DNA of 64,000 nucleotides from positions 64,001 through 128,000 of the IMG/VR virus record IMGVR_UViG_3300045988_145100; one strand, written 5' to 3'. The DNA is from a virus. The notes below the pieces were generated by a model that made no database searches, was not told the origin of the DNA, and worked only from the letters and a program-made list of their open reading frames with translations. Each line of letters begins with the position of its first letter. Positions within the stretch are counted from its first letter, which is position 1. A program made the position numbers and the translations under genes. Shown piece by piece: positions 6,674-64,000 of the stretch.

Positions 6674-6743
6674 TCTGTAAAACCTCCTTTTAATCTCTTA
6701 CAATAATTAATTTTTCTTTGGGCAAAATTATTTAAAACTGACC

Positions 6744-6775
6744 AAAAAAATATTGGGGCAGTTTCCTGCCCCATT
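6744..6775 (-). terminator. Bidirectional rho-independent terminator downstream of the TMP gene
   Basis: Hairpin ggggcag-tttc-ctgcccc at 6755-6772, with atttttt on the plus side and an A-run (T-run on minus) at 6744-6754. Confidence 0.55.
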
Positions 6776-6777
6776 TT

Positions 6778-12700: not shown

Positions 12701-15700
12701 CTATATTGCGAATCAATTTTTGCTCCACTTACTTTAGAAAGCCAATCTTTTCTTTCATCAGCACTCATTTTAGATAAATTATCTGGCAAGTCTATTGTTT
12801 GACTTTCACCTATCAAACTTGCAAAATCTGATAATTTCTTTTGTTTACCTTTATCTTTTCCAAATACACTTTTCTTTTCAAGATATTCTTTAAATGAAGC
12901 ATCAATACTATCTTTTGTTTCTGCTAAATTGTATTTTCTGTCTTCTAATGCTTTTTGGTCTTTTAAAGTAGCTCTATTACCAATAGTTCCCGAAAGCATG
13001 TTTGAAAATTGATTAAATGATTTCTTTGTTTGAAGAAAACCAGACACACTAAAGCCCAATTGAGTAAAAAGTCCAATTATAGAACCAATACTTAATTTTA
13101 AATCTCCAGAAAATAATTCTTCTATAGATTCAAAAACAGAATAAGCACTATTAGCAGTCATCGCAAAACTACTCATAGCACTCGCGCCATTAGCAAAATT
13201 CTCGCCAATACTACCTACAGAAAATCCCATCTCATTAATAGAATCAACTACTGATTTAGAATGATTTTGAACATCTAATAAAGATTTTACATAATCTGCT
13301 AAAGACTTATCTGAAGCCTTTATCGCTTTATGTTGTTCATCAAGTGCGTCAGATATCTTTGTAACATCTGTAGCTTCAAAACCGTAATTTTGTAAAACAC
13401 CTCTGAGATTGCCACTAAGAGTATCTCGATTTGTAAGATAACTCGTTCTATTGTTTTCAATCATCTGTAGCATATGAGCATAGTCTGTTTTATCTGCACC
13501 TGCTACATTCTGACCAGTAATAAGCTTTTTAATATTACCTTCTTTTTTATATTCATTTAATTTCATAAGGTCATCAATCATTCGCTTATTTTCATTTGAA
13601 GAATTATAAAGAGTAGATAATGTTTCTTGCATATCTTTTAAAGAAAATTTACCTGATTTAACTTTATTCATATCAAATAAATTTAAAACTTTATTACTAG
13701 TAGAAATATTAGTTTCATTTCCAGCATATGCTAATTCTGCAGCATTATAGTCTTCAAAAAATTGATTCTGAAGAGCTTCCTGTGCTTCTTCATCAAAATT
13801 AGGATTAACCATGCCTTCAGCTAACTTTTTAGTATCTCTATATTTTTCAAGGTATGATTTATATACTGTTTTATTAATATTCGCACTATTTGTTGGTCTT
13901 CGTTCTTTTTCTGAGAATCTATAATTACCATTCTCATCTGCAGGGTCAACTTGATGTATCATATCCCAATAGCGGCTATTTCTTGCTCTGGTTTTTTCTA
14001 TACCTTTATAGTTTTGACTAAGATAATATTCACTAGGTAATTCATCTGCTTCACCTAATAATACTTTCTTTGCATAAAGCTCTTGTAAAGTATTTTCAGG
14101 TAAATTTTTTGCATAATAAGCTTTGTTTACTTCTGAAGTAATTTTTTCACGAATTTTTTTACTGTCTACGTTGTCTAAAGATAAATTAGTGCTTTTAAAT
14201 CTCTGACCAATAGATGAAATATCGTCAGATGCAGCGTGTCTAGCTTTATTTTTAGTATCATAAATCTGAGCTGTAACTTCAGCTTCTTCTGTTAATTGTT
14301 TTAATTGAGCTTTTTCATTAGCTATTTGTTCTATTTGAGATTCAGTTAAATTTGCATTTATTTTAGCTAACTCTTTTTTCTTCTCAAAAATAGCATTTTC
14401 AATATCATAATTTGCTTTCATATTAGCTACTTGCGCACGGTCTTCTGGCGTTCTTATATCCATTCCCGCAATCATAGCTTTATATTCTTTTTGAGCCTTC
14501 TCTCGGGTTGCCTCAATTTCTTTGCCCATAATACCAAATTTAATTTTAAAGTTATCAACAACTTTATCAACATATTTGCTTATTTGAGGACCTTGATTAG
14601 AAATTATAGTATTTGCTAATAAAATAAAAGCAGTTCTAACTCCACCAACAGAATCAACAAAATGACCAAATCCTTCAATAGCTTTACTAAGGAATTTCAT
14701 TAAATCAACCATAGTTTTACTATCAATAAGATTTGAATAAATTTCTTCTAATGAAGTTTTTATTTTCTTAGATGCGGCATCCCATGATTCTGCATAAATA
14801 TCAGCTTGCTGTTGTAAAGAACCTTCTGCACCCTTAGCTATATTTAAGTTCTCTTGGAAGACATCCCATTTATCCATTAAGGCAATTAATTGGCTATACT
14901 GACGAGTACCTGCAACTGCTTGCGCAACTGCAATCTGTGTATCCTTAGAAATGGTTTTCCATTTAGAACCCATATCGTCTAAGATATCATCCATATCACG
15001 AACTTCGCCTTTTGAATCTTTAATATTAACACCAATAGATTCAAGAGCCTTAGAATACTGACCTAATGTTGTTCCATCATCTAAAGTATTACCTAACTCT
15101 AAGTCCTGGATACGTGCGAATAATGTCTTAAATGCAGTACCTACAGTATCTGCGGACTGACGAGTTTCTGCAACAACAGTTGCAAGAGCAGAAGTAGCAT
15201 ATTCGTATGATAAACCTACAGTATTACCAATAGAAGCAAACTTCTCAAGACCTGCTGCGATTTCATCTGTACTAGATGCAGTTGCCGCACCTAATGCAGT
15301 AAGAACATCTGCAAAGTATTCTACGCTTTTTGAACCATCATTAAAGTTATTCCAAATAGCTGTCATATAAGAAGAAACATCCGCCGCAGTCTCTCCTGTA
15401 ACACTTGCCATCTTTGTAACTGCATCAGTACGTTCCTTAACTGCGGCAGTATCCAGACCTTGCTGATAGAAGATTAATGCCGCATTTGTATATGCAGTTG
15501 TTGTTGTATTTAAAGCTTTGGCAGATTCATTTGCTTGTTTAGCAAATTTAGCCATATTATCTGAACTTTCTCCAGATACTATTCTAATTTCATTTAATGA
15601 TTTATCAAGCTTTCTACTATATTCAAAAGCTTTACTAAATTCTGTTTGTACTTGATGAACGGCACCTGAAGCTACAGTCCATTTCGCACTATTTGTAAGA

Positions 15701-28495: not shown

Positions 28496-30238
28496 TTAAC
28501 TGAAAAACATCATTTTTGAAACATCTCTACTATGTCTATCTTTTTTCCTATCTTCTTGCTGCTTTATATAATATAATCCATACTCGAAAGCAGAAAACTT
28601 ATCTTTCTTAATTCCTCTATTAGCTTGCTTAAGAATAATATTTACGCCCTCATTCTCTTCCACTAGATTTAACATCTGTTCCTTCAATATCGTGGTTAAA
28701 GTGAATGGTATCAGCCTTTCCGCACGTTGTTCTGGAGTCATTTCTTGACCAACTTTTGTAGACATTAACTTTATTTTTGCATCTCTTTCATCAATTAAAA
28801 ATTTAATTTTCCCACTAGATATTTGAGTTTGACAATAGCTATGTGCTTCAGTATTAATTGGTGCATTCGCTTTAATTAAATACATTGCATCTCTAACCAT
28901 ATCATCAGTTTTAAATTTCTTATATTGGTCATACCAATCATCAAAAGTTCCGCCTTCAACTCCAAAAGGTGGATAATATTCTCCTGTTTTCGGGTCTTCT
29001 TGACCTATTATCATAAAATCCACAAGTCCAGCACCTAAACCATTAGCATCTATAACCACGGTTCTTGCACGATACTTGTAATAAAGTTTCTTTATATTTA
29101 TAGCTTGAACTCCGAAATGTTCTTCATCATAACTGTAAATATTAACAAGAGTCTTCAATGCTGTTCCTTGCACTTGCGGCGTTACCTTTATAACCATAAC
29201 CTCAGTTGTACAACCAAAACGACCTACATCGACTGATAGTATATAATATGCGTTTTTTGAACTTCTTGAACTAAATTCATATTCTGGCTGAAGTAACTGA
29301 CGATATTTATCAAATAATTCATTTGAGAAGAATGCATTTTCCGCGTCTCCTGACCAAATACTTCGATATTCTCTATCAAATGAAGCATCGTTGAATGTAC
29401 CTTGTAATTTTAACTGGTCTACAAAATCTTCACTCAACAGACCAGCTTCAACTGGAACTTCATATGTTCCACCTAATATCATTACTTCACCAGGGTCTAA
29501 AATTGAATCAATCAACATCTCAATAAGGTGTTCATATGCAAATGAATTCTTCCATCCTGCAGTTGTAATATATACTTGACTTTTATTTACTGTTTCTTTA
29601 GGGTCTCTACTACCATCCGCAAGTCGTCTATCGACATTTGTAGTTGGAATAATGATTTCATTTAAAGCAGTTCCGTCAATAAGTACACACTCTTCCATTG
29701 CTCCACCTGTACGACGCTGACCTCTGGATGATTCCCTTGCCGCAAGAATATCAATAGTAGAACCGTTTTTAAAGATATATTTTACATTATCTTTTGATTT
29801 TTTTGAGGCTCCTCTGTCCCAATTGATTTCTTTGTTTAATGCGGGAATAAGTCGACAAATTTCTTCAATCTTTGCGATTGTAATACTTGCAGCTTGCTCT
29901 TTTCCACCTGTAGTTACAAATAATGCTGCACCTGGATAAAGAATTGCACGCAACATTAAAGCCATCATAGTTAAAAATGATTTACTGTAAGCACGAGGAA
30001 ATACTGCATAGACTCGACGATGCCGCATAACTGACCTTAAAAAGACTCTCTGATAAAAATAAAATTGGAAATTACAATCTGGTCCTTTAATATCATCAAC
30101 AAAAATATCTGGATATTCACGATAAAAAGCAATAGCTTTTCTTAATTCAGGAAGACATTCTCTTAGTCTTTCTTCTGAACAGCCTACCTTTTTATTATCT
30201 CTTTCCGCGGAAAGGTCTAATATACTTTGTAAACTCAT
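28496..30238 (-). CDS. terL: Terminase large subunit
   Basis: 580 aa. N-terminal ATPase-like segment (FYFYQRVFLRS...VFPRAYSKSFLTMM, Walker-A-like), C-terminal acidic nuclease-like segment (VVIDANGLGAGLVDF); sits upstream of the portal gene. Confidence 0.65.
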   Translation of the reverse strand: MSLQSILDLSAERDNKKVGCSEERLRECLPELRKAIAFYREYPDIFVDDIKGPDCNFQFYFYQRVFLRSVMRHRRVYAVFPRAYSKSFLTMMALMLRAILYPGAALFVTTGGKEQAASITIAKIEEICRLIPALNKEINWDRGASKKSKDNVKYIFKNGSTIDILAARESSRGQRRTGGAMEECVLIDGTALNEIIIPTTNVDRRLADGSRDPKETVNKSQVYITTAGWKNSFAYEHLIEMLIDSILDPGEVMILGGTYEVPVEAGLLSEDFVDQLKLQGTFNDASFDREYRSIWSGDAENAFFSNELFDKYRQLLQPEYEFSSRSSKNAYYILSVDVGRFGCTTEVMVIKVTPQVQGTALKTLVNIYSYDEEHFGVQAINIKKLYYKYRARTVVIDANGLGAGLVDFMIIGQEDPKTGEYYPPFGVEGGTFDDWYDQYKKFKTDDMVRDAMYLIKANAPINTEAHSYCQTQISSGKIKFLIDERDAKIKLMSTKVGQEMTPEQRAERLIPFTLTTILKEQMLNLVEENEGVNIILKQANRGIKKDKFSAFEYGLYYIKQQEDRKKDRHSRDVSKMMFFS

Positions 30239-39214: not shown

Positions 39215-40186
39215 ATGAAAAAGAAGTATTATTTAACATTGGACACGGAGACTGCTACACTACCTTTTGCAAATGAGATTGCAAAGAATCCGAAACAGAA
39301 ACAGAAGATTGCTATTGCCAAGCCACTTGTTTATGATATAGGCTGGGTAATAACAGACAGATTGGGCAATAGAGTAAAGAGAGTTAATTATCTTATTCAG
39401 GAAACTTTCTTTGTACCGGCTATCTTTAATACAGCCTATTACCGCAATAAGCGCCCTATTTATGAACAGCTTCTCGCAGAGGGTAAGATAGGTGTTCGCA
39501 ACTGGAATGATATGGTTGCAGAATTGCTTGAAGATTTGGAAATGTGTACTTGCACATGTGCATACAATGCCGCATTTGATTACAAGAAAGCAATTCCTTT
39601 TACAGAACAGTACATCGCACACCTTTACGCACCAGGCTATCAGTACTGGGAAGATAAGCAGAGAATGAGTTGTGAGAAGATTGTTAGGGGATATAAAGAT
39701 GATAGAGAGAGTAATCCAGAGTATCTTAAACCAGTATTTAAGTTAAGAGATTTTGAGTTTCCTATCGTGGACTTATGGGCAGTAGCTTGTGAGAGATTAA
39801 TAAATATTGATAAGTACAGAAACTTCTGTCTTGACAATAGCTTAATCACTAACAGCGGAGAGTTCTTTAAATCTTCAGCAGAAACTAGCTTCCAGTATCT
39901 TAATAAGAGATACGATTTTACTGAGGACCATACCGCATTAAGTGATAGTGAGATAGAAGCTGATATTCTCACAAAGGCATTAAAGAAAGGCAAGATTGAA
40001 CCAATACTCAAGGCTTTTCCTTTCAGAGAACTGGGTACAACTTACGATTATGCTATTAACAAGAGACCGAAAGCCATTCCAGTAGTTATTGAAGCATTTA
40101 ACAACTATCTTAGCCAGCAGACAACGCATAATTCTTATGTAAGTAAGATTGAGGGCTTAATGTTAATGCTTGAGGGATATTGCTAA
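39215..40186 (+). CDS. DEDDh-family (DnaQ/RNase T-like) 3'-5' exonuclease
   Basis: Motif I TLDTETAT, motif II AYNAAFDY, motif III HTALSDSEIEADIL; 323 aa. Confidence 0.6.
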   Translation: MKKKYYLTLDTETATLPFANEIAKNPKQKQKIAIAKPLVYDIGWVITDRLGNRVKRVNYLIQETFFVPAIFNTAYYRNKRPIYEQLLAEGKIGVRNWNDMVAELLEDLEMCTCTCAYNAAFDYKKAIPFTEQYIAHLYAPGYQYWEDKQRMSCEKIVRGYKDDRESNPEYLKPVFKLRDFEFPIVDLWAVACERLINIDKYRNFCLDNSLITNSGEFFKSSAETSFQYLNKRYDFTEDHTALSDSEIEADILTKALKKGKIEPILKAFPFRELGTTYDYAINKRPKAIPVVIEAFNNYLSQQTTHNSYVSKIEGLMLMLEGYC

Positions 40187-40242: not shown

Positions 40243-40692
40243 ATGAATAAAATTTTAGTTTTTGATATGGACGGAACAATAGCAGATTTCTATGGAGTTG
40301 AGGGTTGGCTTGAAGATTTAAAGAATTGTAGCACTCGCCCTTATGAGATAGCACAGCCAGTTTATGAGCCTACAATGTTAAACGATTTGATTAATACACT
40401 CAAGATTAATGGTTGGAAGATTGTTATTGTAAGTTGGTTAAGCAAGGAAAGCAATAAAAAATATGACGCGGCTGTTCGCAGTGCTAAGAGAGCATGGCTT
40501 GAGCAGATAGGTTTCCCTTATGATGAAGTACATCTTGTCAAGTATGGCACAACGAAAGCCAATTGTACTAGACATTTAGGCGGATTTCAGATATTAGTTG
40601 ATGATAATGAAAAGGTAAGACGCGGTTGGTCGCAGGGTTGCACGATAGACGCGAGACAGGACATTATTGAAAGACTTAAAGATTTAATATAA
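40243..40692 (+). CDS. HAD-superfamily 5'(3')-deoxyribonucleotidase-like phosphatase
   Basis: N-terminal motif VFDMDGTIADF (DxDGT), with a later K and DD motifs; 149 aa. Resembles the NT5C/YjjG class and T5 dmp-type dNMPases. Confidence 0.55.
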   Translation: MNKILVFDMDGTIADFYGVEGWLEDLKNCSTRPYEIAQPVYEPTMLNDLINTLKINGWKIVIVSWLSKESNKKYDAAVRSAKRAWLEQIGFPYDEVHLVKYGTTKANCTRHLGGFQILVDDNEKVRRGWSQGCTIDARQDIIERLKDLI

Positions 40693-56213: not shown

Positions 56214-56881
56214 AGAGGTGTTACTTAATGTATAGTGGTATGCGTTTGCATGAATATAATATAATGAGATATATAACAAGTCTTGGTTATACTGTTATAT
56301 CTCGAGAGAAAGTAGATTTAGACAGAAGGAAAGTAATTCTTGCATTAGACCAGAATGATTTTGGTCAAAAGAATGATTGTACTCTTGTTAGTGCAACAGC
56401 TTTAATTAAAGAGGTTGCGCAAATAAGGCATCTTTCTACAGAAGGACTTTACTCAATAATCGAGGAAATTGCGGAAAAGTACTATAATTATGATGGAAAG
56501 TTAAAAGGTACTAATCCTCTTGTGATATCTGCATTATTACAGAGGTCTTTAGAAAAGTTTACGCCAAATACGCAGTATAAAGCTAAAAGTAAATTTTTAA
56601 AAAGTGTTCCAATTATAGGTTTTAATTTTGAAAAGATTAAAAGTTATATCAAGAATATGCAGTATCCAATGATTTTAAATCTTCTTACAGATGGTCGAAA
56701 TTATTATAAAGACCATTCTGTTTTAATAGTAGGCGTAGAGACTTTTAAAGTTAAGAATAATAAAACTGGGAAGAAGAAAGATTTAAAATTTTTAAGAGTT
56801 TATGATAATTGGAATACTTCTGTTTCATATATTAATTATGAACTTTTGGGTGTTTCATCAATTAACTATTTTGATATTTAA
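56210..56881 (+). CDS. Hypothetical protein
   Basis: 223-aa ORF with an ATGA overlap. Confidence 0.45.
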   Translation: MKRCYLMYSGMRLHEYNIMRYITSLGYTVISREKVDLDRRKVILALDQNDFGQKNDCTLVSATALIKEVAQIRHLSTEGLYSIIEEIAEKYYNYDGKLKGTNPLVISALLQRSLEKFTPNTQYKAKSKFLKSVPIIGFNFEKIKSYIKNMQYPMILNLLTDGRNYYKDHSVLIVGVETFKVKNNKTGKKKDLKFLRVYDNWNTSVSYINYELLGVSSINYFDI

Positions 56882-56999
56882 TTGATATTTATAAAAATTT
56901 ATGTTATAATATTTATATAATAAATAAGACACAAACAGCAATTTTTTAGCTTATAAGAAAGCACTACTCTGTTAAAGTAGATAACTGTGTCTTGTGTTT

Positions 57000-57073
57000 G
57001 GTCCTTTAGCTCAGCTGGTTAGAGCGCTCGTCTCATAAGCGAATGGTCCTGGGTTCGAGTCCCAGAAGGTCCA
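57000..57073 (+). tRNA. tRNA with anticodon CAT (Met / fMet / Ile-lysidine class)
   Basis: Hand-folded cloverleaf: acceptor ggtcctt/aaggtcc (one T-T mismatch), D-arm gctc-agctggtta-gagc, anticodon loop ctCATaa, T-arm ctggg-ttcgagt-cccag. Confidence 0.6.
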
Positions 57074-57582
57074 TTTAAGAATTTATCAGTTCTTAATGCG
57101 TGCATACAGTATTAGATATGTTGACTTGCTTATCAAATAGTTATAAGTCGTGAGTTACTGCGTTAAAGATGACAAGTTGTATGATAATAGTTTTCTTAAA
57201 GCTTTTATTAGGGCGGCAACCTGCCGATAACAAATAGCCATTTTTTAAAAATTTTTGGACAAAGTAATTTAAGTATTATAAAATATTTTTTATATAAAAT
57301 ACAAACTTGAAAAATATAAAAAAATATGATATAATATTTATATAAAGAAAAGAGGTAAGTTACTACCCATGCTTCTCCTCTATAAAAAAGAAGGTATGCA
57401 GGGTGAGGTTGACGGAGAGCGACTAAGGCTGCGGTTTACCCAAGAGAATAAAATCTCCTACTAGCGAAATCTAGTTAAAACTACCAAATTACTCATAGTC
57501 GTATAACAGTAATTTGATTTTTATAAAAATTTATGTTATAATATTTATATAAGATAAAGAAAAAAATATTTTTCCTCTCTCA

Positions 57583-57653
57583 TTCAAAGGTAGGATGCAC
57601 GCCTGTTAAGCGTAGAATCTGGGTTCGAATCCCAGGGGAGGAGCTTCCAGTTG
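57583..57653 (+). tRNA. tRNA-Asn (GTT)
   Basis: Acceptor tcctctc/gggagga, anticodon stem (c)acgc/gcgt(a) with loop ctGTTaa, T-arm ctggg-ttcgaat-cccag. Confidence 0.55.
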
Positions 57654-57915
57654 CGGAACTGGTTAAATAAAACCGAGTAGTCAGTTGTCAGTAACCTTGT
57701 TAAAACTGTCAATGTTCATATCCGAAGAGATTTCAGTGTTCGGTAGAGGTTATGAATGAAGAATGTAGTGAGTTCGATTCTTGCTTGTCCGCCGTAGTTG
57801 GACACATGGTGGCATTTGAAGTATTCCTTGTTGGTTGATTAAATGAAACATGTTGCCGCATGTGGATTAAAATACCAAAATACCTTGACTATAATGACGG
57901 CAATCATTATAGAAA

Positions 57916-57989
57916 TGCTTGTTAGTTTAAATTAATTGGAAAAACACTCCGGGAAGGGGAGATGTTGGGTTCGAATCCCACACAAGTGA
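57916..57989 (+). pseudogene. Degenerate tRNA-like element: canonical T-arm but aberrant D and anticodon arms
   Basis: ttggg-ttcgaat-cccac T-arm and a pairable acceptor, but a 13-nt D-loop, a 4-bp anticodon stem and loop gggaagg with purines at positions 32/33. Confidence 0.25.
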
Positions 57990-58264
57990 TTTTGTCAAAG
58001 CAAAGACATTAAAACTCGCTGATTATTAGGTGTGAATAATAGTCGTTGGCTACATGCGTAAGAAAAATAGTTCGAGAGAGCTATCGGAGCCGTAGAGGAG
58101 AAAGATATCGGCATATGGATAACACACTCCTAGATGCGAGAAATCAAATTAAAGGAAGATGGTATATGCAGCTAATAGAGAGAGTAAAGAGCGCTAGCTT
58201 GTAGCGAAACAACCTGCCAAAAGTAAGTTTATTGGTTTATCTTACATTGGTGAAAAACCTTTTA

Positions 58265-58335
58265 ATTTTATAATCTGGTTTAGTTTAATGGTAGAACCCT
58301 GGCTTTGTAACCCAGTAACGAGAGTTCGACTCTCT
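58265..58335 (+). tRNA. tRNA-Thr (TGT)
   Basis: Acceptor tctggtt/aaccaga, D-arm gttt-aatggta-gaac, anticodon stem ctggc/cccag (C31-C39 mismatch) with loop ttTGTaa, T-arm gagag-ttcgact-ctctc. Confidence 0.55.
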
Positions 58336-58373
58336 CAACCAGAATTAGTACTTTAGTACTAGAAAGGAATGTT

Positions 58374-58652
58374 ATGAAAATATGGCTTGATGATTTAAGA
58401 AAAGCACCTTGCGGATATGTGTGGTGTCATTCAGTTAATGAGACTATATTATTTATTGAGAAGAATAAAAGTGATATAGAATTAATTGATTTAGACCATG
58501 ATTTAGGTGATTTCGCTAAAGATGGCGGCGATGCTATTTATTTAATGGATTATTTAATAGAAAAGAAGTTATTCTATAAGCTAAATTTTCATACTGCAAA
58601 TCCAGTAGGCTTAGCAAATATGTTAAGATTGTATGATAGATACTGGGTATAA
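58374..58652 (+). CDS. Small hypothetical protein embedded in the tRNA array
   Basis: 92-aa ORF (MKIWLDDLRKAPCGYVWCH...) with SD aaaggaatgtt, lying between tRNA-Thr and tRNA-Ala. Confidence 0.4.
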   Translation: MKIWLDDLRKAPCGYVWCHSVNETILFIEKNKSDIELIDLDHDLGDFAKDGGDAIYLMDYLIEKKLFYKLNFHTANPVGLANMLRLYDRYWV

Positions 58653-58725
58653 GGGGCTGTAGCTCAGTTGGGAGAGCATTCGTTTTGCAAGCGAAAGGTC
58701 GTGGGTTCGAACCCCACTAGCTCCA
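58653..58725 (+). tRNA. tRNA-Ala (TGC)
   Basis: Acceptor ggggctg/tagctcc (two G-U pairs), D-arm gctc-agttggga-gagc, anticodon stem ttcgt/gcgaa with loop ttTGCaa, T-arm gtggg-ttcgaac-cccac. Confidence 0.6.
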
Positions 58726-58735
58726 TTAATCATAT

Positions 58736-58764
58736 TTGATTTTTATAAAAAAATATGATATAAT
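58736..58764 (+). promoter_or_regulatory. Consensus promoter copy inside the tRNA array
   Basis: ttgatt-N17-TGa-tataat. Confidence 0.6.
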
Positions 58765-58929
58765 ATTTATATAAGATATGAAAAAAGAAAAAATGTGAAA
58801 AAGATTTTGTAGTAGCATTAAAAATGACAATATACTAATCAGAAAATCTTTATGCGGAAACGCTCTGTAATTAGTATTTCAAGTTTAAATTAGATTGTTT
58901 GGCGTTAACAATAAAATAAAACGCCACTT

Positions 58930-59010
58930 GCGGGATTGGTGAAATTGGCAAACACATACGATTTAAGCTCGTACGCTTTAAGCTTGTGAGTTCGAGTCTC
59001 ACATCCCGCA
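58930..59010 (+). tRNA. tRNA-Leu (TAA), type II
   Basis: Acceptor gcgggat/atcccgc, TG-gtg-aaattggcaaa-cac D-arm as in bacterial tRNA-Leu, anticodon stem tacga/tcgta with loop ttTAAgc, 12-nt variable arm, T-arm gtgag-ttcgagt-ctcac. Confidence 0.65.
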
Positions 59011-59135
59011 CTAACCTAAGAAATTAAATTGTGGTATAAAGACATGATAACTAAGTCTTGTAAGAGATTATTTTATCTTTTATAAAAGTTTTCTTCTCTA
59101 CTAGTGAGTAACAAGCTTTTGAAGTTATCTTATAT

Positions 59136-59205
59136 GTATCATTCGTATAATGGTTTGTACGCTGGGTATTCCCTAGAAGAGTGAGTTCGAATCTTACATG
59201 ATACT
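59136..59205 (+). pseudogene. tRNA-like pseudogene with a 5-nt anticodon loop
   Basis: Perfect acceptor gtatcat/atgatac, normal D-arm and T-arm (gtgag-ttcgaat-cttac), but an anticodon arm ctggg-tattc-cctag. Total length 70 nt. Confidence 0.35.
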
Positions 59206-59313
59206 TTTTAGGCACTAACAGCGAATTTGATGATTCTAACAAACAAAAATATTTGTATGTAAAATGCTAAAGGCTTTATATCCTTTAATTAATCAATAGT
59301 GTCTAGTTTTTCT

Positions 59314-59385
59314 TGAGAGATAATATAATGGTTAGTATGCCTCTCTGATACGGAGGTCATCCGAGTTCAACTCTCGGTCTCTCAA
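59314..59385 (+). tRNA. tRNA-Ile (GAT)
   Basis: Acceptor tgagaga/tctctca, anticodon stem cctct/ggagg with loop ctGATac, T-arm ccgag-ttcaact-ctcgg. Confidence 0.6.
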
Positions 59386-59586
59386 TTTAACACTAGTCTG
59401 AATGGCGTGTCGCGGCGATAGGTCAGACGAAGATTATAGGAAAGTCTCCTGGCACATAATGAGATACTGCCTATATCAGACAGAAGCGAACTGTCTTTAA
59501 ATCAAATGATTAACTCTTACAGCAAAATATGTAGACAACACTATTTTTAAATAGTTTTCATAATACATACCCGAGTTTAGAAATAT

Positions 59587-59615
59587 TTGATTTTTATAAA
59601 AAAATATGTTATAAT
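59587..59615 (+). promoter_or_regulatory. Consensus promoter copy inside the tRNA array
   Basis: ttgatt-N17-TGt-tataat. Confidence 0.6.
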
Positions 59616-59765
59616 ATTTATATAAGATATGGGTTTATAAGTGGCTAGTAACTTCCGTCTAACTTACCCAGACATAGAGTTACCTTTTATCAAGAAAGTA
59701 AATCTTGGTCGTGCGACTACGAGAAGTTACTCTTTGCCAACTAGAGTATAATATAAGTTGGATTT

Positions 59766-59839
59766 GGCTTCTTCTTCTAATCGGTTTAGGAATCTAGGTT
59801 CTCATCCTAGGAATGTCAGTTCGAATCTGGCAGAAGTCA
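59766..59839 (+). tRNA. tRNA with anticodon CTC (Glu by the genetic code); identity is tentative
   Basis: Acceptor ggcttct/agaagtc, anticodon stem ctagg/cctag (perfect) with loop ttCTCat, T-arm gtcag-ttcgaat-ctggc. Confidence 0.45.
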
Positions 59840-59903
59840 TTCAGATGCGAAGTTTTGATAAGTTACCTCTTTTCTATATGCTAGGATTTTCTCCTAGCAG
59901 CTT

Positions 59904-59975
59904 GGCTCTTTCGTCTAGCGGTTAGGACAGCGCCCTTTCACGGCGCAGACCCGAGTTCGAATCTCGGAAGAGTCA
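59904..59975 (+). tRNA. tRNA-Glu (TTC)
   Basis: Acceptor ggctctt/aagagtc, D-arm gtct-agcggtta-ggac, anticodon stem gcgcc/ggcgc with loop ctTTCac, T-arm ccgag-ttcgaat-ctcgg. Matches the classic bacterial tRNA-Glu pattern. Confidence 0.65.
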
Positions 59976-60031
59976 TTTAATCAAAAATTTTTAAATTTTT
60001 GATATAAAGGTTTTGGTGGATAATTACCACC

Positions 60032-60066
60032 CTCCTTTACTTAAAGATATACTATAAAGTAAGGAG
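60032..60066 (+). promoter_or_regulatory. RNA hairpin that sequesters the ribosome-binding site of the GIY-YIG endonuclease gene
   Basis: 5' arm c032-t042 (ctcctttactt) pairs with 3' arm a057-g066 (aagtaaggag). The SD aaggag at 60061-60066 lies entirely inside the 3' arm, 6 nt before ATG 60073. Confidence 0.5.
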
Positions 60067-60072
60067 TATTTA

Positions 60073-60699
60073 ATGAGTTATATTTATAAAATTGTTAATT
60101 CTATTAACAATAAAATGTATATTGGTAAAACATCATTTCCAATAGAAAAAAGATTTCAAGAACATATTTCAGCTAGTAAAAAAGAAAGATGTGAAAAGCG
60201 TCCTTTATATGATGCAATGAATAAATATGGAATAGAAAATTTTTTCATAGAACAAATTGAAGAAGTTGAAAATGATGATATTGCTTGTCAAAGAGAACAA
60301 TACTGGATAAAGAAATTAAGAACATATGTAGGCTATGAAGATTGCGTAGGTTATAATGCTACTTTAGGTGGTGACTCAAGAAGATTATATGATTATGAAG
60401 AAATTTCTAAAAAGTATATTGAGTTACAATCAGTTAAAGAAACTTGTAAATTCTTCAATTGCGATAAGTTAGTTGTTAATTTAGCTTGTAAAGAAAATAA
60501 TGTAACAATTCTTGATGGTAGGCAAAGAAAACAAGTTAGGAGATACAATATAGATAAGACTGAATATAAAGATTATCCTTCAATAACAGAAGCTGCTAAA
60601 GATATCCCTAATAAACCAATAGAAACAGCAAGAAAAAATATCTCAAGAGCAATAAATAAAGGTTTAGTTGCTTATGGATATTATTGGAAAAGAATTTAG
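60073..60699 (+). CDS. GIY-YIG homing endonuclease (SegB-like, free-standing, inside the tRNA array)
   Basis: N-terminal YIYKIVNSINNKMYIGKT...R...EH...N GIY-YIG catalytic motifs; C-terminal basic DNA-binding region (AYGYYWKRI, NUMOD-like); 208 aa. Confidence 0.75.
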   Translation: MSYIYKIVNSINNKMYIGKTSFPIEKRFQEHISASKKERCEKRPLYDAMNKYGIENFFIEQIEEVENDDIACQREQYWIKKLRTYVGYEDCVGYNATLGGDSRRLYDYEEISKKYIELQSVKETCKFFNCDKLVVNLACKENNVTILDGRQRKQVRRYNIDKTEYKDYPSITEAAKDIPNKPIETARKNISRAINKGLVAYGYYWKRI

Positions 60700-60702
60700 T
60701 GC

Positions 60703-60776
60703 CGCGGGTTGGAGAAGTCAGAATCTCGTCGGACTCATTATCCGAAGAACGCTGGGGCAGAGCCAGCACCCGCTAC
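60703..60776 (+). pseudogene. Possible degenerate tRNA-like remnant (CAT-type anticodon loop) immediately after the endonuclease gene
   Basis: gcgggt...acccgc acceptor-like helix, anticodon-like arm tcgga-ctCATta-tccga, atypical T-loop ggcagag. Confidence 0.2.
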
Positions 60777-60901
60777 TTGGTTTTTCTGAATTTCTTCCTT
60801 TAAAAATTCAGTTCATATAAATTTCCTTTCTGTTAGCGGATTGGTTGACAATAATGTCAACCTTACCCGCTTGATATAAACAAAAGGAAATAAAAATCTA
60901 T

Positions 60902-60930
60902 TTGATATTATATAAAATTTATGATATAAT
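60902..60930 (+). promoter_or_regulatory. Consensus promoter copy
   Basis: ttgata-N17-TGa-tataat. Confidence 0.6.
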
Positions 60931-60973
60931 ATATATGTAACAAAGAAAAGGAAAAGAAAAGGAGATTTATATT

Positions 60974-61294
60974 ATGGCAGGACAGAATAAGAGAGTATCA
61001 AGAGTATCAAATGGTGGTAGAACAAAGGCTCATAAAGCTCAGGAAGCTAAGCGTCAGGCAAAGTTTGCTGCAAAGCGTGAAGCTGGAAAAGCTTATGTAT
61101 ATAAGGCAAATCCTTACAAGCCTTACACAAAGAAGTGGTGGATTGAAAAGGACAAGAGGGCGGAGAAAGCTAAGTCATCAAGAGTTCCTTATGCAATCGT
61201 AACATCAATCTTTGCTAAGCTTGATAATAAGATTGCTAAAGAGAAAGAAGCTGCAGCTAAGGCAAAAGCTAAGAAGGCTGCGGCAACCGCTTAA
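60974..61294 (+). CDS. Highly basic Lys/Ala-rich protein (histone H1-like / nucleic-acid-binding) inside the tRNA array
   Basis: 106 aa: ...AKRQAKFAAKREAGKAYVYKANPYKPYTKKWW...AKEKEAAAKAKAKKAAATA; SD aaaaggagat. Confidence 0.45.
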   Translation: MAGQNKRVSRVSNGGRTKAHKAQEAKRQAKFAAKREAGKAYVYKANPYKPYTKKWWIEKDKRAEKAKSSRVPYAIVTSIFAKLDNKIAKEKEAAAKAKAKKAAATA

Positions 61295-61306
61295 TAAAAT
61301 AAGCGT

Positions 61307-61380
61307 GCTAGAATAGCTCAAATGGTTAGAGCAGGCGTTTCATAAGCGTCAGGTTGCTAGTTCGATTCTAGCTTCTAGTA
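61307..61380 (+). tRNA. tRNA with anticodon CAT, second copy (Met / fMet / Ile-lysidine class)
   Basis: Acceptor gctagaa/ttctagt (G1-U72), D-arm gctc-aaatggtta-gagc, anticodon stem ggcgt/gcgtc with loop ttCATaa, T-arm gctag-ttcgatt-ctagc. Confidence 0.55.
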
Positions 61381-61385
61381 TTTAT

Positions 61386-61469
61386 AGGGGAGCGCCGAAG
61401 TTGGAGAGTCGGGGCGGTCTGTAAAACCGTTGCCTTCGGGCTGAGTGAGTTCGAATCTCACCTCCCCTA
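61386..61469 (+). tRNA. tRNA-Tyr (GTA), type II
   Basis: Acceptor aggggag/ctcccct, anticodon stem gcggt/accgt with loop ctGTAaa, long variable arm tgccttcgggc, T-arm gtgag-ttcgaat-ctcac. Confidence 0.6.
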
Positions 61470-61908
61470 CTAGGTTGGAGATTACCTAAAAATCTTCTGT
61501 TAAGCTTTTCTTAATTTTTTATATAAGGATTTTATAATACCTAATATAAAAGATTATTGTTTTCCATAAAAGTTAATACTGAAAACAAAGATGTTTTGTA
61601 CAAACACCATATGTAAGTAGAGCTTCCGAGCTGCGATACTTCATTAAAGCCCATACCGCAATATTACTTTTAATAGATAGAAAATAATGCTCAAATGTAT
61701 TTTTTTGGTTTTAAAAGAGTTTATTAATGCGGGCTTTGTAATTAAACATTAGTAAACAAAATATAGTCCATACAGCAAATGTTCAAGAATATCAGATGAT
61801 TTTATTACTTATTAATTCTTACAGCTGTAAATTACACTGATGACTTATTAAATACTAAAACTTAGGACTTAGAAAATAATAGTTTTAATATAATGATAAG
61901 TCATTTTT

Positions 61909-61980
61909 GCTTCTATCGTTCATCGGTTAGGACAATGTCCTGTCACGGCATAGAGGTGGGTCCGACTCCCACTAGAAGCG
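61909..61980 (+). tRNA. tRNA-Asp (GTC)
   Basis: Acceptor gcttcta/tagaagc, D-arm gttc-atcggtta-ggac, anticodon stem atgtc/ggcat with loop ctGTCac, T-arm gtggg-tccgact-cccac (atypical C55). Confidence 0.55.
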
Positions 61981-62435
61981 TTCACCATAGTTTAAGTATA
62001 ATGAGTTTTAATTAGTAAGTACATGACGATGTTACTGAAGATTAATACATAGTTATACATCAAATTAATTCTTGACTATAGCAGGGGTGATTTGTAGAAC
62101 AGTCTGCCAGTAGCAGAAAGATTCAGTAGAAGTCTGAGGGTGACTTTAATGTTTTTGTGCTAAGCACAGTATTCTAATTTTACTAAACAAAATTTTAAGT
62201 ACAAGAATTGGTTTAGTGCTGCAGTATTTATCAGTATTGTAGCTATGCTGTTGATGATACAGCCGAGGTTAAAGAGCGTTAGTGACCAGTGGTGGTGTTA
62301 TGCTTTGTAATGAAGCATGTTAAGCTAATGACACACGGTTAGGTTTGAGATGTAGAGAGCAAGTCTCAGAAGGCAAGACCTATCAGAATAACAAGCATCT
62401 TAGGGTTGCAACCTCATGATAGGAAATAGCTAAAT

Positions 62436-62507
62436 GCAGGTGTAGTACATCGGCTAGTGCGCCAGACTTCCAATCTGGATAGACGGGTTCGATTCCCGTT
62501 ACCTGCT
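62436..62507 (+). tRNA. tRNA-Gly (TCC)
   Basis: Acceptor gcaggtg/tacctgc, anticodon stem ccaga/tctgg with loop ctTCCaa, T-arm acggg-ttcgatt-cccgt. Confidence 0.6.
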
Positions 62508-62622
62508 TTATCGTAGGGGTTTGGAATCCCCTAAATGAGGCAACCGCCGCGATAATACAAAATTCTTGCAAGAAACAAAATATTATACAATAGAATTCTT
62601 ATTGGTTGTAGGTTCTATTGTT

Positions 62623-62696
62623 TGTGGTGTAGCTCAATCAGGTAGAGCGTTAGCGGCTGGAGCTAAAGGTTAGAGGTTCAAATCCTTTCACCACAA
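62623..62696 (+). tRNA. tRNA-like gene with a non-canonical anticodon loop ggCTGga (G at position 33); possibly Gln-CTG, or a pseudo-tRNA
   Basis: Perfect acceptor tgtggtg/caccaca, D-arm gctc-aatcaggta-gagc, perfect 5-bp anticodon stem ttagc/gctaa, T-arm agagg-ttcaaat-ccttt. Confidence 0.35.
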
Positions 62697-62809
62697 TTCT
62701 GTAGTCGGCATTGGTAAACATAGGAAACTAGATGTCGATGGTTATGAATAAGGATAAAAGTTGCAACAAAACTTGTTCAGATTATGCGGAATTGCAACAC
62801 CGCATTTTC

Positions 62810-62883
62810 GGGGAATTAGCTCATATGTGGCAGAGCACTCGGTTGAAGCCCGAGGCGGAGAGGCTCGATACCTCTACTCCCCA
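62810..62883 (+). tRNA. tRNA-Phe (GAA)
   Basis: Acceptor ggggaat/actcccc (one A-C mismatch), D-arm gctc-atatgtggca-gagc, perfect anticodon stem ctcgg/ccgag with loop ttGAAgc, T-arm agagg-ctcgata-cctct (atypical T-loop). Confidence 0.5.
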
Positions 62884-63029
62884 TTTTATTAAAGGCTTAA
62901 ACAGCAATTCAGTGTAAGTACTGGTTGAGAAAAACAAATATTAAAATATTAAAGTTATTAAATAACGAGCCTAGCATAATAGATTATTTCTTAATTTTAA
63001 TATAAAGTAGCTTTATAGTTACTCTTATT

Positions 63030-63103
63030 GCGCCTATAGCTCAGTTGGCTAGAGCATCAAACTTTTAATTTGAGGGTCCCGAGTTCGAGTCTCGGTGGGC
63101 GTA
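63030..63103 (+). tRNA. tRNA-Lys (TTT)
   Basis: Acceptor gcgccta/tgggcgt, D-arm gctc-agttggcta-gagc, anticodon stem tcaaa/tttga with loop ctTTTaa, T-arm ccgag-ttcgagt-ctcgg. Confidence 0.6.
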
Positions 63104-63408
63104 TTAAAATATTAGTGCCTTAACTGAGAGTCAGGATTCAAAGGTTAAATGAGGTAATCAGTCCATAAATCAGCTAATACTTTTAATGTAAGATAAAAGA
63201 AGAAAAAGGGTTTAGGACTTCTTTTGTAACGATACACAAACCAGCAACCCTGAGCTTTATATTAGCAACAGTCCACGAAGTAATTTTCTAGGAGTGCTGT
63301 TTAGGTGGTTATCTCTTACAAAAATAAACAGTAGAAAGGAGATAAATATGAGAAAGGATATTCATACAGCTTTTCACCTATAAGTTCTTTTTAAAGGAGG
63401 AATTATAA

Positions 63409-63684
63409 GTGAGTAGAAGTTATAAAAAACATAATTGGTATTGTGACCACAAAGGAAAAGAGAAAAAAAGAACTGCTAATTCAGTAGTCCGTATGTGGTT
63501 AAAAGACCATCCAGATGAAGTTATCAAAAGGAGTAGTTATAAAAAAATTTATGAAAAGTATGATATTTGTGACTGCAAAATTTTTGCTTCTTGGGAAGCT
63601 TATTATTTAAGCTGTTTAAGATGGGGCGATACTGATTATAAGAGAATTTATCGAACATGGCTTCAGGTTTATAGAAATAAATAA
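63409..63684 (+). CDS. Small basic hypothetical protein (GTG start) inside the tRNA array
   Basis: SD aaaggagg 8 nt upstream of GTG 63409; 91 aa rich in Lys, Arg, Tyr and Cys. Confidence 0.4.
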   Translation: MSRSYKKHNWYCDHKGKEKKRTANSVVRMWLKDHPDEVIKRSSYKKIYEKYDICDCKIFASWEAYYLSCLRWGDTDYKRIYRTWLQVYRNK

Positions 63685-63686
63685 TT

Positions 63687-63771
63687 GCGGGTATGGCGTA
63701 AAGGTATCGCAGAGCATTGCTAATGCTTCCACCTCATGCGGGGTGTCTAAGTTCGAATCTTAGTGCCCGCG
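63687..63771 (+). tRNA. tRNA-Ser (GCT), type II
   Basis: Acceptor gcgggta/tgcccgc, TG-gcg...cgc D-arm, anticodon stem gagca/tgctt with loop ttGCTaa, long variable arm, T-arm ctaag-ttcgaat-cttag. Confidence 0.6.
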
Positions 63772-63774
63772 TTT

Positions 63775-63846
63775 GCGGGAATACGCTAATGGATAGACGA
63801 AGTGGCTACGAACCACTCAGTTGGAGTTCGAGTCTCCATTTCCGCA
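63775..63846 (+). tRNA. tRNA-Arg (ACG)
   Basis: Acceptor gcgggaa/tttccgc (one G-U), perfect anticodon stem agtgg/ccact with loop ctACGaa, T-arm tggag-ttcgagt-ctcca. Confidence 0.6.
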
Positions 63847-63852
63847 CTTATT

Positions 63853-63938
63853 GCCGCGTTGGCTCAACTGGTACAGCACGGGTCTTGAAAACCCGCATCT
63901 TCGTAAGGGGTATCTGAGTTCGAATCTCAGGCGCGGCG
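63853..63938 (+). tRNA. tRNA-Ser (TGA), type II
   Basis: Acceptor gccgcgt/gcgcggc, anticodon stem cgggt/acccg with loop ctTGAaa, long variable arm, T-arm ctgag-ttcgaat-ctcag. Confidence 0.6.
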
Positions 63939-64000
63939 CTGTAGATGATGACGACATCTACACGGCAGGATTCGTCACCTGCCGTGGATACACGCCTGTC

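Follow-up and report, generated by a model that had tools for sequence, protein, structure and literature searches.

A promoter-split phage tRNA array with a GIY-YIG endonuclease cassette and a variant initiator-type tRNA

Large phages often carry tRNA gene clusters with homing endonucleases. The spread of such enzymes is said to follow a cycle, reportedly modelled by Goddard and Burt in 1999, with empty-sensitive, occupied and empty-resistant sites. In phage T4, the GIY-YIG enzyme SegB is encoded in the tRNA cluster and spreads along with the tRNAs next to it; its recognition motif, GGTTCRANTCC, is found at the 3' end of tRNA genes, and its low expression was proposed to keep it from harming its own phage (PMC2330249). 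The association of SegB with tRNAs is found in many phages (PMC13096335), and a T5 tRNA region with F-Tfl endonucleases has also been mentioned (PMC2330249). Separately, phage tRNAs have been proposed to escape host anticodon nucleases by changes in the anticodon loop (van den Berg et al. 2023, PMC10264068; Azam et al. 2024, PMC11555353). Here we describe a tRNA gene array in a 64,000-nucleotide stretch of viral DNA (positions 64,001 to 128,000 of IMG/VR record IMGVR_UViG_3300045988_145100; hereafter the window, whose coordinates are used unless another genome is named). Its central feature is a mobile cassette that combines a GIY-YIG homing endonuclease gene with a variant initiator-type tRNA gene.

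The cassette and its two genes are as follows.

59982-60775, + strand: mobile cassette of the GIY-YIG gene and the variant initiator-type tRNA, missing from endonuclease-free relatives, junctions mapped
60073-60699, + strand: GIY-YIG homing endonuclease, 208 aa (PF01541, E 3.4e-10)
60703-60775, + strand: variant initiator-type tRNA(CAT), a complete cloverleaf with T-loop GGCAGAG and D-loop AGTCAGAA

The endonuclease also matches PHROG homing-endonuclease families (E 5e-24), together with a weak NUMOD1 match below the cut-off (E 0.006). For comparison, two syntenic IMG/VR genomes were used, A (L001, 147 kb) and B (L002, 150 kb), which are 89-98% identical in blocks. Relatives were found via IMG/VR and through exact-protein look-ups with ORF106 (open reading frame, ORF), a protein encoded in the array; these look-ups brought in ten further population variants (L022-L031) and a sister lineage (L032-L035), in which the ORF106 homologue is 72% identical. 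The arrays are syntenic in 12 close genomes. A megablast search of the array against 50,697 phage records gave no match, and a scan of metagenome contigs with ORF106 gave no relative.

An initial annotation of this DNA had taken the element at 60703 for a remnant with a CAT loop. The CAT loop is there; the element is no remnant. Its minimum-energy fold is a perfect cloverleaf of about -27 kcal/mol, and ARAGORN and Rfam overlook it because of its T-loop and D-loop. In the same slot, endonuclease-free relatives carry an unbroken initiator-type gene whose 5' end reads CGCGGGG, with A11:U24 and a mismatch at 1:72. A 1:72 mismatch with a CGCGGGG 5' acceptor strand defines the bacterial initiator tRNA; a purine11:pyrimidine24 pair and three G-C pairs at the base of the anticodon stem are further hallmarks. 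The mismatch is C1xU72 in the window variant, A, L025 and L033, and C1xA72 in B, the 5' strand being CGCGGG(G/T), and A11:U24 is present in every initiator-type allele. At the bottom of the anticodon stem, the window variant has two G-C pairs out of three (G29:C41, G30:C40, A31:U39), whereas the canonical alleles of relatives have only one. All initiator-type alleles, canonical and variant, also share U37 (loop NUCAUUA), a pyrimidine that is unusual for any tRNA.

The variant differs from the canonical allele of relatives at approximately 24 of 73 positions, in flanks that are 98% identical. These differences leave the structure intact: a pair count over five initiator alleles found 100% of cells paired, with seven pairs, distributed over all four helices, changed on both sides. 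None of 500 shuffles equalled the pairing of 60703, and controls in a slid register gave about 50% pairing. The element is a re-written, fully foldable initiator tRNA rather than a product of decay, and is probably the cut-proof target of the endonuclease with which it travels. The motif recognised by SegB, GGTTCRANTCC, is missing from the variant, and its GGCAGAG T-arm was not found as a tRNA in other IMG/VR phages.

The mobility of the cassette is most evident in the sister lineage. Between the window and L032/L034, the GIY-YIG protein is identical at 205 of 209 aa and the variant tRNA at 73 of 73 nt, as opposed to only 72% identity of the adjacent ORF106. The right junction of the cassette is the 3' end of the variant tRNA, immediately beyond which lineage-specific sequence starts. 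Only the first 37 positions of the resident canonical initiator gene are left in L032/L034. The cassette comes next, and on its left it begins with the window-type tRNA-Glu(TTC) trailer (microhomology GA[G/C]TCATT); the replaced tract extends from position 38 to the 3' end of the resident gene. The endonuclease-free sisters L033 and L035 have an intact initiator gene at the same spot. A census of 16 genomes found the GIY-YIG gene with the variant in seven, the variant alone in its native spacer in two (L024 and L030, where it is the sole initiator-type gene) and the canonical gene only in the other seven; in none of the 16 does the GIY-YIG gene stand beside an intact canonical initiator gene. 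Variable presence across relatives, co-conversion of flanks, horizontal spread and a target footprint are thus all found for the GIY-YIG gene. The gene and the tRNA at 60703 make up one mobile cassette, its homing footprint is visible in L032/L034, and each of the three homing-cycle states is represented.

Other endonuclease genes have inserted in the arrays of relatives, and two of them are linked to a re-written tRNA as well. In B (L002 15026-16053), the resident tRNA-Tyr is split by an insert with its own TGnTATAAT promoter, a variant tRNA-Tyr (T-loop AGCATTA) and a 231-aa ORF, endonuclease-like in that its C-terminal region is shared with HNH endonucleases, the N-terminal domain being different. 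In L025, only the T-arm of tRNA-Ala has been re-written (GAGGG-AGCATAA-CCCTC), directly upstream of an HNH gene. B has, in addition, a 247-aa HNH gene (L002 16569-17438) inserted exactly at the anticodon of tRNA-Asp, with a junction that corresponds to window 61942/61943. The insert has too little noncoding sequence to contain a group I intron, and the tRNA gene seems merely to be interrupted. The slot upstream of the initiator gene is filled in A by another HNH gene. The array is a hot-spot for homing endonucleases, which would be a plausible reason for some of the non-standard T-loops.

The array is further divided by promoters. An extended -10 motif (21 nt, TATGWTATAATATWTATRTAA, with TTGAT at -35) occurs in 14 near-identical copies, all on the + strand between 43712 and 60940, compared to 0 expected in shuffled sequence. 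Six of the 14 lie inside the array.

56882-56910, + strand: promoter P1 (TTGATA-17-TGnTATAAT), ahead of the first CAT tRNA
57307-57335, + strand: promoter P2, driving a 171-nt unit (57343-57513) without ORF or tRNA
57514-57542, + strand: promoter P3, motif copy
58736-58764, + strand: promoter P4, motif copy
59587-59615, + strand: promoter P5, followed by a 142-nt leader (59623-59764)
60902-60930, + strand: promoter P6, motif copy

Because of these six copies, the array is split into several short early transcription units. Recombination between promoter copies accounts for at least one deletion of the window relative to A and B. The phage has a GC content of 32% and a strong preference for A/U-ending codons (TTA makes up 60% of Leu, ATA 30% of Ile, AGA 69% of Arg, GAA 78% of Glu and AAA 68% of Lys codons), which the tRNA set fits.

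We consider it quite probable that the locus as a whole is an early tRNA array, split by promoters, that serves as a landing pad for endonucleases and holds a cut-proof tRNA cassette. When a relative with the canonical initiator-tRNA gene infects the same cell, the GIY-YIG endonuclease would cut the 3' half of that gene, most likely close to the T-arm, like T4 SegB. Repair would then copy the endonuclease gene together with a tRNA allele that is altered in its T-loop and stems and can still fold; this allele would be immune to cutting and would stand in for the lost gene. Its use as a landing pad for homing endonuclease genes would account for much of the oddness of the array. As to expression, at least six near-identical strong sigma-A-type promoters would transcribe short multi-tRNA precursors, from which host RNase P and 3' processing enzymes would cut about 21 decoding tRNAs in the full genome. 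Besides the three CAT species (Ile2-type, elongator Met, initiator-type), the decoding set would consist mainly of readers of A/U-ending codons. The array would thereby enable the translation of AT-rich phage genes and would probably sustain translation when host tRNAs are depleted.

Outside the window, the re-written T-arm RGGGAGCATWACCCTC has 39 exact matches in IMG/VR (L038-L076), approximately half of them in loci with 6-24 tRNAs. Of the 39, at least 22 form complete cloverleaves of 71-72 nt, with the T-arm GRGGG-AGCATWA-CCCTC and a D-loop of 7 nt (about AAWAGUA) that lacks GG (L055 9055-9125 and L045 3055-3125 are examples); they occur in unrelated large phages and represent eight isotypes (His, Ala, Gly, Asp, Lys, Ile-UAU, Gln and Glu). 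ARAGORN calls only four of them. That the AGCATWA T-arm is a mere flank of endonuclease genes was rejected, as endonuclease genes related to those of this lineage are found in only 5 of the 39 loci and do not always adjoin the tRNA. Every variant T-loop encountered (GGCAGAG, AGCATAA, AGCATTA, TGCAACT) has G55-C56-A57 in common. A narrow full-text literature search returned no paper on a class of phage-encoded tRNAs with non-canonical T-loop, D-loop or elbow. The AGCATWA cloverleaves may form a class of phage tRNAs, with an elbow of a different kind, that is under-counted. More tentatively, some tRNAs in phage arrays might work with an elbow that has been re-engineered (T-loop G55-C56-A57, D-loop without GG) and go unseen by T-arm homing endonucleases, perhaps by T-arm host enzymes and largely by tRNA finders, and endonuclease cassettes might spread by carrying such a cut-proof replacement.

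Several tRNA genes of the array differ between close genomes far more than their surroundings: identity is 77% for tRNA-Leu, 74-75% for tRNA-Glu(TTC) and 85% for tRNA-Glu(CTC), in flanks that are 95-100% identical. Compared to the A/B allele, tRNA-Leu (flanks 95-97%) has its D-loop, anticodon arm and variable arm replaced, and tRNA-Glu(TTC) its anticodon and T arms. tRNA-Glu(CTC) has three anticodon-stem alleles, each compensated, and pair 27:43 of tRNA-Asn(GTT) is A-T, C-G or T-A across three genomes. Diverged alleles are either whole-arm replacements or the result of compensatory changes, with the anticodon and acceptor kept. The elongator tRNA-Met(CAT) at 61306 is invariant in 13 of 13 close genomes. 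Recombination is also visible: the Glu-TTC gene of L024 is a recombinant of two alleles, and the Glu-TTC arms of A/B resemble the neighbouring Glu-CTC.

To derive rates, each feature was aligned separately (19 tRNAs, 13 genomes, alleles with an identity of 90% or more); aligning the whole array across genomes was rejected, as it forced non-homologous insertions together. Substitutions per site amount to 0.079 in the anticodon stem, 0.023 in the acceptor stem, 0.007 in the D stem, 0.011 in the T stem and 0.078 in the spacers. Anticodon stems thus change about 5-fold faster than the other stems (0.015, p 4.9e-5) and, with replaced alleles included, reach 0.163 (p 1.8e-4 versus spacers). Outside the misaligned Leu family, they contain ten double compensatory and six wobble changes and 0 broken pairs. 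In the loops, positions 32, 33, 37 and 38 vary around fixed anticodons. The tRNA-Ala(TGC) loop is a normal TTTGCAA in the window, CTTGCAA in L023 and CCTGCAA (C33) in A (L001 12685-12757) and B (L002 12377-12451), so positions 32 and 33 are polymorphic in the population.

Directly upstream of this tRNA-Ala lies one of the small ORFs of the array.

58374-58652, + strand: cREC_REC protein, 92 aa (PF20274, E 2.7e-21), its stop codon abutting tRNA-Ala

The match scores 76.5 bits (cut-off 27), with residues 1-88 covering profile positions 1-87 of 88. Comparative genomics predicts that cREC domains process 2',3'-cyclic phosphate or cADPr, and links them to RNA ligases (PMC7824862). The position of the gene against tRNA-Ala suggests a role in the healing of tRNA ends. 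The compensated, neutral-rate turnover of anticodon stems, a non-U33 tRNA and the cREC gene would fit, without proving it, an arms race with host anticodon-arm nucleases that is added to the endonuclease cycle.

The alternative that survives best gives this arms race the leading part: anticodon turnover, non-U33 tRNAs and cREC would mainly defeat host anticodon nucleases, and the array would be a counter-defence island rather than a codon supply. It draws on the anticodon stem being the fastest-changing region of the tRNAs and always paired, on loop positions that vary next to fixed anticodons (including C33 of tRNA-Ala in A/B and G33 of the tRNA at 62622), and on the 2',3'-cyclic phosphate ends that such nucleases leave and cREC is predicted to process; both the hypothesis and experiments have been published for other phages (PMC10264068, PMC11555353). 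However, without replaced alleles the anticodon-stem rate is equal to that of spacers, not above it, alleles clearly recombine with one another, and the phage's codon usage is matched so well by the tRNA set that codon supply alone could explain the array. Furthermore, a scan of 10 early ORFs turned up neither an RNA ligase nor a kinase that could partner cREC, which also counts against the added arms race in our own reading. Compensated anticodon-stem turnover fits escape from anticodon-arm nucleases, escape from DNA endonucleases, or relaxed constraint with allele exchange equally. We regard the counter-defence island as possible, somewhat short of an even chance.

Several considerations weigh against the landing-pad reading with its cut-proof cassette. 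The cut site is deduced from the footprint only, and GIY-YIG enzymes can cut away from where they bind. The T-loop (G54 G55 C56 A57 G58) and the GG-less D-loop of 60703 break near-universal features, and the tRNA may not work in translation. The genomes represent only two independent lineages, which makes association statistics weak. Close kinship of the enzyme with SegB was not found in a tblastn search of the 50,697 phage records: the best match, 42% identical, is a human faecal/gut phage, and no T-even phage is among the matches listed. Fast compensated change of anticodon stems could reflect weaker sequence constraint together with gene conversion between alleles or paralogues, instead of selection by nucleases.

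The most direct challenge to the cassette itself is that co-conversion could simply have brought in an allele that had diverged in the donor lineage, with the variant tRNA neither selected for immunity to cutting nor necessarily the target. Free-standing homing endonucleases normally co-convert flanking markers, SegB carries neighbouring tRNA genes (PMC2330249), and the nearby Glu-TTC and Leu genes show whole-arm allele replacement with no endonuclease gene adjacent. Yet the footprint in L032/L034 places the replaced tract exactly inside the resident initiator gene, the variant survives without the endonuclease gene in L024 and L030, the endonuclease is never paired with an intact canonical gene, and re-written T-arms recur beside two other endonuclease genes (Tyr in B and Ala in L025). 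A passively dragged allele is unlikely on this evidence, and the cut-proof allele is preferred.

Four other elements of the array depart from standard tRNA genes.

59136-59205, + strand: most likely an inactivated tRNA-Gly(TCC) paralogue (ARAGORN 'Asn-ATT'; no Rfam match)
62622-62697, + strand: conserved tRNA with loop GGCTGGA (G32 G33; ARAGORN 'Gln-CTG'; Rfam 59.3 bits)
57916-57989, + strand: tRNA-like element with a hypervariable non-U33 loop (ARAGORN only at the 80% threshold)
57767-57785, + strand: T-arm-like hairpin AGTGAG-TTCGATT-CTTGCT, inside the ARAGORN -ps80 candidate 57706-57793

The first three, together with 60703, could be decaying, functionless pseudogenes from duplication in an eroding array, in line with the degenerate copies of the initial annotation. 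U33 and a purine at position 37 are near-universal in decoding tRNAs. A 7-nt anticodon loop with both is found in 17 genes of the array and is absent from 62622, 59136 and 57916; G33 and a pyrimidine at 37 break the rule, which speaks for decay. So do the failure of default ARAGORN and Rfam to find 57916 and 60703, and the absence of RF00005 matches at E<=5 for 59136, 60703 and 57916. The case is best for 59136. The defective 5-nt loop proposed for it is real (TATTC, or alternatively a 4-bp stem with the loop GTATTCC and C37): the gene is the orthologue of an intact Gly-TCC in B, minus 2 nt in the anticodon loop. It is redundant with a second Gly(TCC) of the window lineage at 62436, B lacking the segment 61982-62485. 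Even so, two double changes in the acceptor stem relative to the B allele keep pairing. An inactivated paralogue is the most likely interpretation.

For 62622, the G33 loop was correctly noticed, whereas 'defective' is not the best reading. The element is present in 11 of 11 close genomes covering the locus, in four alleles that all have GGCTGG(A/G), and its body is nearest to phage tRNA-Pro genes, not Gln. A homologue of the body in L033 (11570-11645) has compensated stems and an 8-nt anticodon loop, ATAGTGGA. Its G33 anticodon arm was not found as a tRNA in other IMG/VR phages. It is a maintained gene, to judge from these alleles, with an unorthodox loop. The loop ATAGTGGA also occurs on a different body in L032 (7202-7277), where it resembles a His-GTG loop with one extra base; further calls in L032/L033 include Cys(ACA), Ile(TAT) and one with a 2-nt 'anticodon'.

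The element at 57916 has a 7-bp acceptor stem and a T-arm. On the fold of the initial annotation its loop is GGGAAGG (G33, as claimed), and the ARAGORN call at 80%, 'Val-AAC', uses a different fold. Five alleles have the loops GGGAAGG, GACAAGG or GATAAGG, with acceptor and T stems kept by covariation; the T-stem of L001 has gained one pair and has changed two others on both sides, and five acceptor transitions all keep pairing. We class it as tRNA-like and not a decoder. The hairpin at 57767-57785, whose stem covaries with GGCAAG/CTTGCC in A and B, reads as a tRNA relic. Further ARAGORN -ps80 candidates at 59966-60040, 62095-62177 and on the minus strand are spurious, with poor stems or overlap with real tRNAs. 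General decay of the array is thus quite unlikely. The stems of 60703, 62622 and 57916 are kept paired; in 60703 they are so through seven double compensatory changes, and the variant is identical in two lineages. The view of the aberrant elements as degenerate copies largely fails.

The long noncoding stretches between the genes had been described as structured and reminiscent of the stable RNAs of the T4 tRNA region. Three of the four (57090-57480, 58000-58260, 59400-59760) have fold z-scores of -0.3 to -1.4 relative to shuffles, not above shuffled structure, and the spacers 57075-57306, 57343-57513 (-1.05), 57990-58273, 59387-59586 and 59623-59764 are equally unremarkable. Only 61471-61907 (z -3.1, both strands) and 61982-62435 (z -2.3, + strand only), in the fourth, 61480-62430, stand out. 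Consensus folding over 5-7 alleles found essentially no double compensatory changes in the stretches, whereas the embedded tRNA-Glu(CTC) shows four; the small divergence available gives such tests low power. Sensitive blastn against the 50,697 phage records gave no match for 61982-62435 and only the promoter consensus for 57075-57572. The stretches differ in presence even between near relatives: B lacks 57084-57243 and 61982-62485, and the window has lost a promoter and a unit of about 190 nt retained in A, B and L025. Low diversity was found in the P2 unit (0.047 substitutions per site) and the P5 leader (0.042), compared to a spacer mean of 0.078, so a small RNA may be encoded there.

One spacer stands apart.

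60786-60871, + strand: two conserved hairpins (60786-60811 and 60835-60871; z -6.7, three compensatory pairs)

No other spacer shows sound signs of structure or has a homologue in the 72% sister lineage, where the hairpins covary, and it is probably a terminator or processing site. Decayed endonuclease genes were rejected as a source of the spacers, since tblastn with the four endonuclease proteins of the lineage matched only the GIY-YIG gene in the window. Two short ORFs were likewise rejected as coding: 57369-57464 has two nonsynonymous changes to one synonymous, and 58046-58204 is frameshifted by a 1-nt indel in relatives. The idea that the long stretches are stable structured small RNAs like T4 species 1 and 2 has in its favour the full-consensus P2 unit (A, B and L025 have one more such cassette), the lower diversity of this unit and the P5 leader and the strand-specific fold of 61982-62435, but it is improbable given the fold energies of three stretches, no Rfam family for them at E<=5 in 56500-64000, scarce covariation, no homologues outside the immediate lineage and patchy presence within it.

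The remaining tRNA genes of the array are listed here. Except where stated otherwise, each was found by both ARAGORN and Rfam.

56999-57074, + strand: tRNA(CAT), Ile2-type (Rfam 63.4 bits)
57573-57644, + strand: tRNA-Asn(GTT)
58274-58344, + strand: tRNA-Thr(TGT)
58653-58725, + strand: tRNA-Ala(TGC)
58930-59011, + strand: tRNA-Leu(TAA), type II
59313-59386, + strand: tRNA-Ile(GAT)
59765-59840, + strand: tRNA-Glu(CTC)
59903-59976, + strand: tRNA-Glu(TTC)
61306-61381, + strand: tRNA-Met(CAT), elongator type
61386-61470, + strand: tRNA-Tyr(GTA), type II (Rfam in the permissive scan only)
61908-61981, + strand: tRNA-Asp(GTC), T-loop TCCGACT (C55)
62436-62507, + strand: tRNA-Gly(TCC)
62810-62883, + strand: tRNA-Phe(GAA), T-loop CTCGATA (C54)
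63029-63104, + strand: tRNA-Lys(TTT)
63686-63772, + strand: tRNA-Ser(GCT), type II
63775-63847, + strand: tRNA-Arg(ACG)
63853-63939, + strand: tRNA-Ser(TGA), type II
63992-64000, + strand: tRNA-Trp(CCA), first bases only at the window end, recognised from relatives (there, Trp(CCA) follows Ser(TGA) and starts with ACGCCTGTC)

In the whole window, ARAGORN finds 19 tRNA genes, all on the + strand, at 56999-63939. The Rfam tRNA model (RF00005, gathering threshold 29 bits) finds 17 at gathering score, and the permissive scan adds Tyr (42.5 bits); 17 array genes score as cloverleaves, at 42-68 bits. The hand-folded array of about 19 genes is thereby recovered with its coordinates and anticodons, as are its three CAT tRNAs, interspersed ORFs and type II genes (Leu, Tyr and both Ser have long variable arms). 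The permissive scan of 56500-64000 gave no non-tRNA Rfam family and no group I or other intron at E<=5; introns proposed by the intron mode of ARAGORN were rejected as implausible. Beyond the window end, the array continues with Trp(CCA) in all relatives and Arg(TCT) in most. The cluster of tRNA genes is genuine and, for a large phage, an ordinary feature.

The three CAT tRNAs form the classical trio of an Ile2-like gene (56999), an elongator Met (61306) and an initiator type (60703). The first carries C4:G69 and C5:G68 in the ARAGORN drawing, which we take to be TilS determinants, and is probably a tRNA-Ile2 that would decode AUA after lysidine modification; the syntenic first slot of L033 holds an Ile(TAT) gene. 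The canonical elbow (T-loop U54-U55-C56-R57-A58 with G18 G19 in the D-loop) is present in most genes, the exceptions being Asp, Phe and 60703. The ARAGORN drawings bear out the non-standard T-loops reported earlier for Phe and Asp; the Phe loop of relatives is TTCGATA.

All four ORFs described inside the array were found, and PADLOC matched none of the array ORFs to a defence system. Besides the GIY-YIG and cREC genes, these are the following.

60974-61294, + strand: Lys/Ala-rich basic protein, 106 aa (ORF106), no family match (Pfam, PHROG)
63409-63684, + strand: 91-aa ORF, no family match (Pfam, PHROG)

ORF106 has 27 homologues at 50-94% identity and is conserved in the arrays of related lineages. 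In L036, where its homologue is 56% identical, a Cas12f1-like/TnpB family protein (PF07282) is encoded a few kb upstream, at 6458-8020. A homologue of the 91-aa ORF (46% identical) adjoins tRNAs in the unrelated phage contig L018 (7187-9567); one of the L018 tRNAs reads amber (CTA), and another call there has an anticodon of 4 nt.

Outside the array, the early ORF at 40243-40692 has a HAD_PNKP match below the cut-off (Pfam E 3.6e-4), to the phosphatase domain of polynucleotide kinase-phosphatase. The adjoining ORF, 39215-40186, has a weak, sub-threshold DEDDh exonuclease match (PADLOC, E 1.3e-4). In L025, genes downstream of the array (6466-14058) match Thg1, YqeY, an AAA ATPase, DUF2828 and a metallophosphatase. 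Thg1 acts in tRNA 5'-end repair or G-1 addition, and these genes, which are missing from the window, are a possible tRNA or RNA repair module.

The structural module of the phage is on the - strand at 1-32.7 kb, with the early genes on the + strand.

28496-30238, - strand: terminase, within the structural module

Siphoviruses of Firmicutes with genomes of ~140 kb (Enterococcus phages H1 and EF1, Geobacillus E3 and gut phage Phass-1) have terminases about 45% identical to this one, and the terminase of a human faecal phage contig is 73% identical to it. The source, judged by these matches, is a siphovirus of about 145-150 kb with a Firmicutes host, probably from the human gut. The structural module also contains two very large ORFs (1812 aa and 3110 aa; 1235-16110, - strand).

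The cassette provides a clear natural example of a selfish endonuclease that would target an RNA gene and leave the phage a foldable copy, with seven base pairs and two loops changed, and the stages of the homing cycle are all visible in metagenomes. Phage tRNAs without the near-universal elbow are missed by gene finders, and the tRNA content of phages may be under-counted. The rules by which RNase P, the CCA-adding enzyme and the ribosome recognise tRNA may be looser than assumed. Anticodon-stem turnover, a G33 tRNA and the cREC gene provide material on phage tRNAs as counter-defence. The kind of feature is known; what the locus adds is the endonuclease-linked, re-written tRNA allele, the compensated anticodon-stem turnover and a hint of an alternative-elbow class.

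As in T4, where species 1 and 2 RNAs are encoded in the tRNA region, noncoding DNA lies between the tRNA genes and one unit has its own promoter. The likeness ends there, with no backing from fold energy, Rfam, covariation or conservation outside the immediate lineage. T5 and other large arrays similarly have about 20 tRNA genes in the early region, interspersed small ORFs and homing endonuclease genes, and divergent tRNAs; unlike them, the window array is divided into at least six units by near-identical promoters and has a cloverleaf invisible to ARAGORN, a G33 tRNA and cREC. With the phages thought to escape anticodon nucleases it shares loop positions that vary next to kept anticodons, and the array could replace host tRNAs that have been cut. 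The signal here, in contrast, is between near-identical phages, strongest in the anticodon stem and compensatory; membership in that group is hypothetical.

The closest parallel is T4 SegB, likewise a free-standing GIY-YIG gene in a phage tRNA cluster, variable in presence and co-inherited with neighbouring tRNA genes. Its target lies in the 3' part of a tRNA gene, and the footprint of the window lineage's cassette in the 3' half of the initiator gene. By analogy, the window enzyme may work like SegB, but no orthology to it emerged from the tblastn search, and it is not a close relative. Unlike in T4, the linked tRNA allele is re-written throughout and also circulates alone, and self-protection, proposed there to come from low expression, would come here from an immune tRNA allele. 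As in the general homing cycle, all three states are found at one site in one phage population. Here, however, the site is an RNA gene, and resistance would therefore arise through structure-preserving changes, not synonymous codons.

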